A stretch of 64,000 nt of DNA from Escherichia coli (GTDB lineage Bacteria > Pseudomonadota > Gammaproteobacteria > Enterobacterales > Enterobacteriaceae), in assembly GCF_011045215.1 (NCBI RefSeq), contig NZ_CP049201.1; one strand, given 5' to 3'. The notes under the pieces are model-generated. The model ran no database searches, was not told the origin of the DNA, and saw only the letters and a list, made by a program, of their open reading frames with translations. Positions 42,957-47,328 of this stretch are shown one piece after another (within the stretch, counting starts at the first letter, position 1; every line of letters begins with the position of its first letter). Both the position numbers and the translations under genes were made by a program.

Positions 42957-44453
42957 ATGGCGAAAGAAAAAAAACGTGGCTTTTTTTCCTGGCTGGGCTT
43001 TGGTCAAAAAGAGCAGACCCCGGAAAAAGAGACAGAAGTTCAGAATGAACAACCGGTTGTAGAAGAAATCGTTCAGGCGCAAGAGCCTGCGAAGGCTTCG
43101 GAACAAGCCGTTGAAGAGCAGCCGCAGGCGCATACTGAAGCCGAGGCGGAAACTTTTGCTGCCGACGTTGTGGAAGTCACTGAACAGGTAGCTGAAAGTG
43201 AAAAAGCGCAGCCTGAAGCGGAAGTCGTTGCACAGCCGGAACCGGTCGTAGAAGAAACGCCGGAGCCAGTGGCTATCGAGCGTGAAGAACTGCCGTTGCC
43301 GGAAGACGTCAACGCCGAAGAGGTTTCGCCAGAAGAGTGGCAGGCTGAAGCGGAAACCGTAGAGATTGTCGAAGCGGCGGAAGAAGAAGCGGCTAAAGAA
43401 GAAATCACCGACGAAGAGCTGGAAGCACAGGCGCTGGCAGCCGAAGCGGCAGAAGAGGCGGTGATGGTGGTTCCTCCGGCAGAAGAAGAGCAGCCGGTGG
43501 AAGAAATCGCTCAGGAGCAGGAAAAACCAACCAAAGAAGGTTTCTTCGCGCGCCTGAAACGCAGCCTGTTAAAAACCAAAGAAAATCTCGGTTCCGGATT
43601 TATCAGCCTGTTCCGCGGTAAAAAAATCGACGATGATCTTTTTGAAGAGCTGGAAGAACAGCTGTTGATCGCCGATGTGGGCGTGGAAACCACACGTAAA
43701 ATTATCACCAATCTGACGGAAGGCGCATCCCGCAAGCAGCTTCGTGATGCCGAGGCGCTCTATGGCCTGCTGAAAGAAGAGATGGGCGAGATTCTGGCGA
43801 AAGTCGATGAGCCGCTGAATGTTGAAGGTAAAACGCCGTTCGTGATCCTGATGGTGGGCGTCAACGGTGTGGGTAAAACCACGACGATTGGTAAGCTGGC
43901 ACGTCAGTTTGAGCAGCAGGGTAAATCGGTGATGCTGGCGGCGGGCGATACTTTCCGTGCAGCAGCGGTTGAACAGCTTCAGGTCTGGGGTCAGCGCAAC
44001 AATATTCCGGTGATTGCCCAGCATACCGGTGCGGATTCCGCCTCTGTTATCTTCGACGCCATTCAGGCAGCTAAAGCGCGTAATATCGACGTCCTGATTG
44101 CCGATACCGCCGGACGTCTGCAGAACAAATCGCATCTGATGGAAGAGTTGAAGAAAATCGTCCGCGTGATGAAGAAACTCGACGTTGAAGCGCCGCATGA
44201 AGTTATGCTGACTATTGATGCCAGCACCGGGCAGAACGCGGTAAGCCAGGCCAAACTGTTCCACGAAGCTGTTGGCTTAACCGGCATCACGCTAACGAAA
44301 CTGGACGGCACGGCGAAAGGCGGGGTAATTTTCTCGGTGGCTGACCAGTTTGGTATCCCTATCCGCTACATTGGTGTCGGCGAACGTATTGAGGATTTGC
44401 GTCCGTTTAAGGCGGACGACTTTATAGAGGCACTTTTTGCCCGAGAGGATTAA
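42957..44453 (+). CDS. ftsY: Signal recognition particle receptor FtsY
   Basis: Acidic low-complexity A domain followed by NG domain with GTPase motifs (GVNGVGKTT, DTAGR, TKLD). Confidence 0.92.
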   Translation: MAKEKKRGFFSWLGFGQKEQTPEKETEVQNEQPVVEEIVQAQEPAKASEQAVEEQPQAHTEAEAETFAADVVEVTEQVAESEKAQPEAEVVAQPEPVVEETPEPVAIEREELPLPEDVNAEEVSPEEWQAEAETVEIVEAAEEEAAKEEITDEELEAQALAAEAAEEAVMVVPPAEEEQPVEEIAQEQEKPTKEGFFARLKRSLLKTKENLGSGFISLFRGKKIDDDLFEELEEQLLIADVGVETTRKIITNLTEGASRKQLRDAEALYGLLKEEMGEILAKVDEPLNVEGKTPFVILMVGVNGVGKTTTIGKLARQFEQQGKSVMLAAGDTFRAAAVEQLQVWGQRNNIPVIAQHTGADSASVIFDAIQAAKARNIDVLIADTAGRLQNKSHLMEELKKIVRVMKKLDVEAPHEVMLTIDASTGQNAVSQAKLFHEAVGLTGITLTKLDGTAKGGVIFSVADQFGIPIRYIGVGERIEDLRPFKADDFIEALFARED

Positions 44454-44455
44454 CA

Positions 44456-45124
44456 ATGATTCGCTTTGAACATGTCAGCAAGGCTTATCTCGGTGGGAGA
44501 CAGGCGCTGCAGGGCGTTACGTTCCATATGCAGCCGGGTGAGATGGCGTTTCTGACCGGTCATTCCGGCGCAGGGAAAAGTACCCTCCTGAAGCTGATCT
44601 GTGGGATTGAGCGGCCCAGCGCCGGGAAAATCTGGTTTAGCGGCCATGACATCACGCGTCTGAAAAACCGTGAAGTTCCGTTTCTGCGCCGCCAGATTGG
44701 CATGATTTTCCAGGATCACCATCTACTGATGGACCGTACTGTCTACGATAACGTGGCGATCCCGCTGATTATCGCCGGTGCCAGCGGTGACGATATTCGT
44801 CGCCGGGTGTCGGCGGCGCTGGATAAAGTCGGGCTACTGGACAAAGCGAAGAACTTCCCTATTCAGCTTTCCGGCGGTGAACAACAGCGTGTTGGCATTG
44901 CCCGCGCGGTGGTGAACAAGCCCGCTGTACTGCTGGCGGACGAACCGACCGGTAACCTGGACGACGCGTTGTCGGAAGGGATTCTACGTCTGTTTGAAGA
45001 GTTTAACCGCGTTGGGGTAACCGTATTGATGGCAACGCACGACATCAACCTGATTTCACGGCGTTCCTATCGCATGCTCACCCTGAGCGATGGTCACTTG
45101 CATGGAGGCGTGGGCCATGAATAA
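44456..45124 (+). CDS. ftsE: Cell-division ABC ATPase FtsE
   Basis: 222 aa; Walker A (GHSGAGKST), signature (LSGGEQQRV). Confidence 0.92.
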
Positions 45125-46175
45125 GCGCGATGCAATCAATCATATCCGGCAGTTTGGCGGGCGTCTGGATCGCTTCCGTAAATCGGTCGGCGGCTCTGGC
45201 GACGGCGGTCGTAACGCACCGAAACGCGCGAAATCCTCGCCAAAACCGGTAAATCGCAAAACCAACGTTTTCAACGAACAGGTGCGCTATGCCTTCCACG
45301 GCGCATTGCAGGATCTGAAAAGCAAACCGTTCGCCACGTTTTTAACGGTGATGGTTATCGCCATCTCTCTGACGCTGCCCAGCGTCTGTTATATGGTGTA
45401 CAAAAACGTTAACCAGGCGGCGACGCAGTATTATCCGTCACCGCAAATCACTGTTTATCTGCAAAAAACGCTGGACGATGACGCTGCTGCGGGCGTGGTG
45501 GCACAGTTGCAGGCCGAGCAAGGCGTGGAGAAAGTGAATTATCTTTCTCGTGAAGACGCACTGGGTGAGTTCCGTAACTGGTCTGGTTTTGGTGGTGCGC
45601 TGGATATGCTGGAAGAAAACCCGCTTCCGGCAGTGGCGGTGGTGATCCCGAAACTCGATTTTCAGGGGACGGAATCACTGAATACGCTGCGCGATCGTAT
45701 CACGCAGATTAACGGCATTGACGAAGTGCGGATGGATGACAGCTGGTTTGCCCGTCTGGCGGCGTTGACCGGGCTGGTCGGGCGCGTTTCGGCGATGATC
45801 GGCGTGTTGATGGTGGCGGCAGTGTTCCTCGTCATCGGTAACAGTGTACGCCTGAGTATCTTTGCTCGTCGTGACTCCATTAACGTGCAGAAACTGATTG
45901 GTGCAACGGATGGTTTCATCCTGCGCCCGTTCCTGTACGGTGGCGCATTGCTGGGGTTTTCTGGCGCATTGTTGTCACTAATTTTGTCAGAAATTCTGGT
46001 ACTGCGATTGTCATCGGCGGTTGCGGAAGTGGCACAGGTTTTCGGAACGAAGTTTGATATCAATGGATTATCGTTCGATGAATGCCTGCTATTGCTGCTG
46101 GTATGCTCGATGATTGGCTGGGTGGCAGCGTGGCTTGCCACGGTACAACATTTACGCCACTTTACGCCTGAATAA
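45117..46175 (+). CDS. ftsX: Cell-division ABC-like permease FtsX
   Basis: 352-aa product starting [10 protein letters not shown]; start overlaps the ftsE stop by 8 bp. Confidence 0.9.
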
Positions 46176-46299
46176 TAAAAGCGTGTTATACTCTTTCCCT
46201 GCAATGGGTTCCGTAGCAGGGAAAGAGACCCCGTTGTCTCTTCCCGGTATTTCATCTCTATGTCACATTTTGTGCGTAATTTATTCACAAGCTTGCATT

Positions 46300-46326
46300 G
46301 AACTTGTGGATAAAATCACGGTCTGA
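46300..46326 (+). promoter_or_regulatory. Sigma-E-dependent rpoH promoter (P3) with overlapping DnaA box
   Basis: GAACTT at 46300-46305, 16-bp spacer, TCTGA at 46322-46326; TGTGGATAA (DnaA box, reverse strand) at 46306-46314. Confidence 0.7.
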
Positions 46327-46419
46327 TAAAACAGTGAATGATAACCTCGTTGCTCTTAAGCTCTGGCACAGTTGTTGCTACCACTGAAGCGCCAGAAGAT
46401 ATCGATTGAGAGGATTTGA

Positions 46420-47274
46420 ATGACTGACAAAATGCAAAGTTTAGCTTTAGCCCCAGTTGGCAACCTGGATTCCTACATCCGGGCAGCTAACGCGTGGCCG
46501 ATGTTGTCGGCTGACGAGGAGCGGGCGCTGGCTGAAAAGCTGCATTACCATGGCGATCTGGAAGCAGCTAAAACGCTGATCCTGTCTCACCTGCGGTTTG
46601 TTGTTCATATTGCTCGTAATTATGCGGGCTATGGCCTGCCACAGGCGGATTTGATTCAGGAAGGTAACATCGGCCTGATGAAAGCAGTGCGCCGTTTTAA
46701 CCCGGAAGTGGGTGTGCGCCTGGTCTCCTTCGCCGTTCACTGGATCAAAGCAGAGATCCACGAATACGTCCTGCGTAACTGGCGTATTGTCAAAGTTGCG
46801 ACCACCAAAGCGCAGCGCAAACTGTTCTTCAACCTGCGTAAAACCAAGCAGCGTCTGGGCTGGTTTAACCAGGATGAAGTCGAAATGGTGGCCCGTGAAC
46901 TGGGCGTAACCAGCAAAGACGTACGTGAGATGGAATCACGTATGGCGGCACAGGACATGACCTTTGACCTGTCTTCCGACGACGATTCCGATAGCCAACC
47001 GATGGCACCGGTGCTCTATCTGCAGGATAAATCATCTAACTTTGCCGACGGCATTGAAGATGATAACTGGGAAGAGCAGGCAGCAAACCGTCTGACCGAT
47101 GCGATGCAGGGGCTGGACGAACGCAGCCAGGACATCATCCGCGCGCGCTGGCTGGACGAAGACAACAAGTCCACGTTGCAGGAACTGGCTGACCGTTACG
47201 GTGTTTCCGCTGAACGTGTACGCCAGCTGGAAAAGAACGCGATGAAAAAACTGCGCGCTGCTATAGAAGCGTAA
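46420..47274 (+). CDS. rpoH: RNA polymerase heat-shock sigma factor sigma-32
   Basis: 284-aa ORF starting [15 protein letters not shown] with sigma-70-family regions 2 and 4. Confidence 0.95.
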
Positions 47275-47295
47275 TTTCCGCTATTAAGCAGAGAA

Positions 47296-47328
47296 CCCTG
47301 GATGCGAGTCCGGGGTTTTTGTTTTTTG
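47296..47328 (+). terminator. rpoH intrinsic terminator
   Basis: GC-rich hairpin (ccctggatgcgagtccgggg) followed by TTTTTGTTTTTT. Confidence 0.7.

Follow-up and report, generated by a model that had tools for sequence, protein, structure and literature searches.

The element at 46300-46326 of the window (the whole stretch of E. coli DNA that was analysed, 64,000 nucleotides or 64 kb) is, with a probability of about 0.93, the promoter P3 of rpoH, transcribed by sigma-E and accompanied by DnaA boxes that damp the transcription of rpoH. Compared with P3 of rpoH in E. coli K-12 it is the same promoter at the same locus, and the two do not differ. The combination of P3 and DnaA is already known; it was published in 1989 and appears both in current reviews and in ChIP-seq tables. 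Reportedly, it was Erickson and Gross and also Wang and Kaguni who in 1989 described P3 of K-12 as dependent on sigma-E/sigma-24. For the biology of E. coli the analysis brings nothing new, but there are three small comparative refinements: the two DnaA boxes appear to be an inverted pair and not a tandem one, position 46320 is the only tolerated variation found in P3, and the DnaA box seems to be a recent addition to an older sigma-E promoter. At P3 three controls meet on the master regulator of the heat-shock response: sigma-E for envelope stress, DnaA as the initiator of replication, and CRP/CytR for catabolite and nucleoside signals.

The window is a part of the E. coli chromosome with the genes ftsYEX-rpoH-livJ, all of them on the plus strand. 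The coding sequences of FtsY (42957-44453) and FtsE (44456-45124) are followed by that of FtsX, which ends at 46175, and LivJ starts at about 47488. The gene served by P3 is rpoH (46420-47274, ATG at 46420), encoding sigma-32 of 284 amino acids and annotated as rpoH in E. coli genomes. A 401-bp query across the P3 element was found in 5425 of 5426 complete genomes, with 100% identity to E. coli chromosomes, and the annotated neighbours of the matching region in E. coli genomes were ftsX and rpoH. In MG1655 rpoH lies on the complement strand at 3,599,929-3,600,783. The intergenic region between ftsX and rpoH is identical in the window and in MG1655, with no indels in the alignment, and coordinates were converted by subtracting the window position from 3,647,203. 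GAACTT is then found at 3,600,898-3,600,903 in MG1655, and the DnaA box TTATCCACA at 3,600,890-3,600,898.

The element itself, GAACTTGTGGATAAAATCACGGTCTGA, reads GAACTT-N16-TCTGA on the plus strand, 94-120 nt 5' of the rpoH ATG. No other match to this motif is present in the window, and none was found in any of 100 dinucleotide-preserving shuffles. The preliminary description had proposed a sigma-E promoter at this place, and the proposal holds, the match being exact and in agreement with the published model of Rhodius et al. 2006 (PMC1312014), for which 28 mapped sigma-E promoters of E. coli were used. In the model the -35 element is GGAACTT, and the -10 element has the form (T/C)GGTCAAAA and is of the TCAAA type, with an invariant C and with GG ahead of it. 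The spacer is 15-19 nt, with 16 nt strongly preferred, the discriminator is 5 or 6 nt, and the distance from the -35 to the purine at the start is 26 or 27 nt (PMC1312014). P3 has the -35, the 16-nt spacer and the -10 that place it among the sigma-E (RpoE, ECF02) promoters. Its -35 element GAACTT (46300-46305, plus strand) matches the motif exactly and shows 98-100% conservation across 58 distinct Enterobacteriaceae-like upstream regions, and the base before it (46299) is T in E. coli as compared to G in 41 of these 58, which read GGAACTT. The spacer GTGGATAAAATCACGG (46306-46321, plus strand) is nearly invariant save for G or T at 46320, and the -10 element TCTGA (46322-46326, plus strand) follows GG or TG and is invariant in 58/58 sequences; in the window its context is cGGTCTGAt (46319-46327). 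As tGAACTT-N16(...cGG)-TCTGAt conforms to the sigma-E model, A46333 is the predicted start (46332-46333, plus strand), which by the spacing rules of PMC1312014 would be 27 nt past the -35 and 87 nt 5' of the ATG.

The dependence of P3 on sigma-E is taken from the literature. It has been described as "exclusively transcribed by sigma-E", and micA is said to have the very same -10 element as P3 (PMC1851643). The promoter is widely used, both as the standard sigma-E reporter and as a template in vitro. An entry for rpoH was not found in the transcription start site supplements of Kim 2012.

On the minus strand, a consensus DnaA box, TTATCCACA, is located at 46305-46313, the single occurrence of this 9-mer in the window. 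Its 3'-terminal A pairs with T46305 at the end of the -35 hexamer, and its other eight bases make up spacer bases 1 to 8 out of 16, so that the box covers about -28 to -20 of P3. A box on this strand and overlapping the promoter had been noted in the preliminary description, which is right, but it had been placed one position too far downstream (46306-46314) and inside the spacer, whereas it in fact touches the -35 element. Such a consensus box is expected 0.36 times in a 64-kb window, and a lone box is thus unremarkable; the chance that one overlaps a given 27-nt element is on the other hand, by our own arithmetic, about 0.36 x 35/64000 = 2e-4. A second box, TTATTCACA, is found on the plus strand at 46281-46289, about -52 to -44 of P3. 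It fits TTATNCACA, is inverted relative to the first and is separated from it by 15 bp. Together with their flanks the boxes form a 12-nt inverted repeat, I2 (46280-46291 / 46303-46314), which is 92% complementary. P3 carries a 9-mer that fits TTATNCACA (consensus TTATCCACA), that overlaps the core promoter elements and that is conserved in orthologous promoters. Adjoining the second box is the upstream block TGTCACATTTTGTGCGTAAT (46261-46280, plus strand), in the zone of the P3 UP-element and regulators, which is 84-100% conserved in the 58 sequences and also conserved in Citrobacter and Enterobacter.

Binding of DnaA in vivo and the repression of rpoH were likewise found in published work. 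Where three recent papers name the DnaA-repressed genes, rpoH is among them, with Wang & Kaguni 1989 as the source. A DnaA ChIP-seq study from 2024 reported 16 bound regions, including rpoH at 3,600,944, and its table quotes tTTATCCACAagTTCAATGCAa for rpoH, naming the TTATCCACA box (PMC11317965). tTTATCCACAagTTCAATGCAa is the reverse complement of window positions 46293-46314, and the peak corresponds to 46259, which puts it some 50 bp away from this box and inside the 200-bp criterion of that paper (PMC11317965). The footnote of PMC11317965 states NC_000913.2, but the coordinates are in NC_000913.3 numbering, as can be inferred from the oriC peaks, which fall within the oriC annotated in NC_000913.3. 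The signal at rpoH was the weakest of the 16 regions, 4-fold over control, and only 13 of 32 consensus boxes in the genome were bound, rpoH being one of them (PMC11317965); since so few are bound, the occupancy at rpoH is informative. The known link between the heat-shock sigma factor, envelope stress and DnaA that the preliminary description named is therefore supported, as P3 is exclusive to sigma-E in the literature and rpoH is both DnaA-repressed and bound in ChIP-seq.

Other DnaA-repressed promoters, those of dnaA, mioC and uvrB/DARS1, with nrdA as a mixed case, have the same TTATCCACA box, placed to hinder RNA polymerase and occupied in ChIP-seq. The rpoH promoter is different from the dnaA, mioC and uvrB set in that the polymerase targeted is the holoenzyme of an ECF sigma factor, plus sigma-70 at P4, and its occupancy is the lowest of the set. 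The arrangement of the boxes also differs from the "double DnaA box" model, where two tandem boxes are 2-3 bp apart (PMC11317965), as compared to the inverted second box 15 bp away at rpoH. The tandem partner proposed there, TTCAATGCA (46294-46302, minus strand), agrees with the consensus at 4 of the 8 specified positions by our own count. It falls mostly within the linker between the boxes (46290-46299, not assigned to a strand), which is polymorphic in E. coli and variable across genera and which includes most of this half-site. Because of the poor match and the location in a variable linker, the conservation appears to support a classical inverted box pair over a tandem "double box" at rpoH.

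The abundance of sigma-32 is controlled mainly at the post-transcriptional level, and for this reason proteomics is a weak test in the case of rpoH. This limit applies to a study where the level of DnaA-ATP or the titration of DnaA was perturbed and most of the DnaA regulon was unchanged at the protein level (PMC12371093). Since the proteins of the regulon were largely unresponsive there, the physiological weight of the DnaA repression at rpoH is uncertain.

To describe the variation around P3 two samples were used. A protein-anchored scan with one genome per species gave 80 rpoH loci, from Enterobacterales to beta-proteobacteria. A scan of metagenome DNA, for which the ribosome-binding site with the start codon (TTGAGAGGATTTGAATGNC) was the only anchor, gave 120 matches; 101 of these encode an RpoH-like N-terminus, and 97 of the 101 have enough upstream DNA. 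The anchor limits this sample to close enterics. TGTGGATAA is exact in 96 of the 97 metagenomic loci, and in the one remaining locus GGTGGATAA is found and the -35 is GAACTG. The TTATCCACA box is also exact in Citrobacter and Enterobacter. When the 58 distinct upstream sequences were aligned, 46300-46328 was invariant or nearly so, save for 46320. In the second box conservation is 97-100% at positions 2-4 and 6-9; at position 1, 38 sequences have T and 18 have C, and the degenerate position 5 is T in 45, A in 11 and G in 2. The linker, at 46290-46295 and at 46299, varies freely among the same relatives. The sequences of this alignment are divergent enough to reveal constraint, and it spans both boxes and both promoter elements.

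One alternative is that both the sigma-E motif and the DnaA box are chance resemblances without function. It is a fact that a consensus box is expected 0.36 times in a window of this size, and that DnaA binds no more than 13 of the 32 consensus boxes genome-wide. Against it speak the 0/100 result of the shuffles, the canonical distance to rpoH, and the near-invariance over 5425 E. coli genomes and related genera right beside a freely varying linker. A motif of the sigma-E type also recurs 5' of rpoH in distant gamma- and beta-proteobacteria, and this very promoter serves as a sigma-E reporter in an extensive literature. Chance is therefore a most improbable explanation.

The conservation is not to be credited to DnaA alone, since it extends over the whole spacer with its AAATCAC (46313-46319), a stretch that is dispensable for DnaA; an overlapping CRP-like site and P4 could account for it. 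The putative CRP site is the dyad TGTGG-N6-TCACG (46305-46320, plus strand), a pattern match which lies over both the spacer of P3 and the DnaA box and which could explain why the entire spacer is invariant. The CRP pattern in its N7 form has 3 matches in the window as compared to 1.6 expected, which is not significant alone. The start of the sigma-70 promoter P4 is presumably about 10 nt downstream of the P3 start, and that of the CRP-dependent P5, as we take it, a further 20-25 nt beyond. The dyad would then sit near -41.5 of P5, and it may be the activator site of a downstream cAMP-CRP-dependent promoter. A generic sigma-70 scan gave nothing relevant in the P3/P4 area, just a weak match across the start codon. 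In the account given by PMC3454398 rpoH is an established target of cAMP-CRP/CytR (Kallipolitis & Valentin-Hansen 1998), and the CRP/CytR cassette is conserved in Salmonella, Klebsiella, Citrobacter and Shigella. The cAMP-CRP/CytR complex is similar to DnaA at rpoH in that it acts in the same short regulatory region of the same close relatives and is also negative on rpoH transcription, but it differs in the proteins and in the signal, which is nucleosides/cAMP.

It is then conceivable that the sigma-E promoter is real, but that TGTGGATAA is kept mainly as the left half-site of CRP (46305-46320), and maybe as the -35 of P4, with DnaA incidental or marginal; the CRP site would activate the downstream cAMP-CRP-dependent promoter and form a repression complex with CytR. 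Such a role would be in line with the invariance of the entire spacer (46305-46319) with its non-DnaA AAATCAC, with a CRP-like dyad of the correct 6-bp spacing, and with the experimentally established CytR/CRP regulation of rpoH and its conserved cassette (PMC3454398). The DnaA ChIP signal is in addition weak, 4-fold, and the DnaA regulon was insensitive to perturbation of DnaA in proteomics (PMC12371093). However, a CRP half-site needs only TGTGA-like bases, and the 9-mer found here agrees perfectly with the box consensus, its overlap having a chance of about 2e-4. A second box that fits TTATNCACA lies 15 bp away and varies at the degenerate position 5, and also between T and C at position 1. 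DnaA was detected in vivo at just 13 of 32 consensus boxes, rpoH included, and repression has been reported in the literature. We consider a merely incidental DnaA box to be rather unlikely, and the roles of CRP and DnaA are mutually compatible. Structured RNA was also considered as a cause of the conservation and is unsupported; no Rfam family reached the gathering score in the whole 64-kb window, and none was found around rpoH at a relaxed threshold.

In the preferred reading of the element, as a sigma-E promoter damped by DnaA, RNA polymerase with sigma-E recognises GAACTT at 46300-46305 and TCTGA at 46322-46326, 16 nt apart, and should begin transcription at about A46333, the predicted start 87 nt 5' of the rpoH ATG. 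Envelope damage or extreme heat leads to more synthesis of sigma-32 by way of P3. DnaA at about -28 to -20 and about -52 to -44 would bracket the -35 of P3, and when bound it probably excludes region 4 of sigma-E and the C-terminal domains of the alpha subunits sterically. At P4, which closely overlaps P3, it would also block the polymerase with sigma-70. As the TTATCCACA box extends over what is likely the -35 region of P4, and over the CRP-like site too, one protein could in this way affect three promoters. The net outcome would be that the transcription of rpoH is damped by DnaA.

Variation within the species was studied with the 40-mer 46297-46336, which was searched in the 5425 genomes. 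It was exact in 4940 of them and had one mismatch in 485. In the three single-mismatch genomes that were sampled, the difference was in each case G to T at 46320 (CACGG to CACTG), a spacer position outside the DnaA box and both promoter elements, and one other E. coli genome had T to A at 46335. The G/T at 46320 was the only recurrent polymorphism found inside P3 of E. coli. T at this position is also present in Citrobacter and Enterobacter, and among the 58 relatives it is found in 48, with G in 10. Because most of the other Enterobacteriaceae have T, the G of the K-12 type appears to be the derived state, and it is nearer to the cGGTC of the -10-proximal consensus.

Upstream of the -35 hexamer, all SNPs in the sampled E. 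coli were within 46290-46296 of the linker, where the alleles AGCTTGC, GCGTTGC, GCGTTGT, AACTTGC and AGCCTGC were observed. This concentration of polymorphism explains that 1690 genomes had less than 99% identity to a 65-mer query. A loss of P3 in 478 E. coli genomes that were missed by megablast was considered and rejected, as a more sensitive search finds all 5425; the missed genomes differ by the linker SNPs and the single G/T at 46320.

Farther from E. coli the two parts of the arrangement separate. Many of the 80 genomes have the motif GAAC(T/C)N-N15-17-TCNNA 70-200 nt 5' of rpoH, with Pasteurellaceae, Vibrio, Pseudomonas/Stutzerimonas, Xanthomonadales and Burkholderiales among the carriers, and in Shewanella the variant GAACTT-N16-TCTAT is found. 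Among the 80 loci, the carriers of the spacer DnaA box are limited to E. coli, Citrobacter werkmanii (L017) and Enterobacter sp. (L002); in the same sample it is absent from Photorhabdus, Acerihabitans, the reduced Pantoea symbionts and all more distant loci (Vibrio, Pasteurellaceae, Pseudomonas and others). With the motif widespread and the box confined to close enterics, the distribution indicates that the sigma-E input to rpoH is old and that enterics gained the DnaA box recently. The sigma-E/AlgU/SigE-type rpoH promoters of other proteobacteria, for instance that of Bordetella bronchiseptica (fam), have GGAACTT-N16/17-TCnnA about 70-200 nt upstream in common with P3, and the logic is the same, from envelope stress to the heat-shock sigma factor. 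They differ in that the spacer has no DnaA box outside Escherichia, Citrobacter, Enterobacter and similar enterics, and 37 of the 80 loci instead have CIRCE. The fam promoter of B. bronchiseptica is transcribed by SigE in vitro (PMC3490749).

CIRCE, the HrcA operator (TTAGCACTC-N9-GAGTGCTAA, mostly with 0-1 mismatch; consensus confirmed in PMC545781), is located 50-180 nt 5' of rpoH in these 37 loci, all from non-enteric gamma- and beta-proteobacteria (L021, L027, L028, L031, L036, L038-L040, L046, L048-L050, L052-L054, L056, L058-L070, L072, L074-L078, L080 and L081). In about 18 of them the left arm begins 15-16 nt past GAAC, so that the final TC of the arm is also the TC of the -10 in a sigma-E-type promoter with GGAACTT-N16, and in 4 others CIRCE lies directly 3' of the -10. 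The Bordetella locus (L075) is one of the carriers, and PMC3490749, which found the fam promoter to be SigE-dependent in vitro, does not mention CIRCE. It has been predicted earlier that CIRCE occurs upstream of rpoH in some taxa, and Permina and Gelfand reportedly made such a prediction in 2003. The fusion of CIRCE with an ECF promoter parallels the overlay of DnaA and CRP in enterics. It is tentatively suggested that the sigma-E-type rpoH promoter is an ancient, conserved scaffold, where the repressor operator inserted at the spacer and -10 differs with the lineage: a DnaA box and a CRP-like site in enterics, and CIRCE in many beta-proteobacteria and non-enteric gamma-proteobacteria. This fusion, and the view of it as an "operator swap", may not have been described before. 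If the operators are functional, the availability of HrcA/GroEL chaperone would gate the envelope-stress induction of sigma-32 in the CIRCE lineages, and replication and carbon status would do so in enterics.

It was also possible to observe other features near rpoH. A perfect sigma-54 -24/-12 core, TGGCAC-N5-TTGC, is located at 46364-46378 on the plus strand, about 42-56 nt 5' of the rpoH ATG, and is the sole one in the window. Its TGGCA and TTGTTGC are conserved in the 58 relatives, and we take it to be, probably, the reported P6 of rpoH. Right after the ftsX stop there is an inverted repeat with 17-nt arms, CTCTTTCCCTGCAATGG / CCGTAGCAGGGAAAGAG (46191-46227), with no T-run behind it; in Citrobacter and Enterobacter the bases of the stem are retained and the loop is variable. 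Directly 5' of this hairpin, TGtTATACT (46184-46192) resembles an extended -10, and it would fit the distal rpoH promoter P1, with a start near 46199-46200. At the other end of the gene, 17 nt past the rpoH stop, a strong hairpin followed by a T-run (47291-47320, plus strand) looks like an intrinsic terminator and is presumably that of rpoH.
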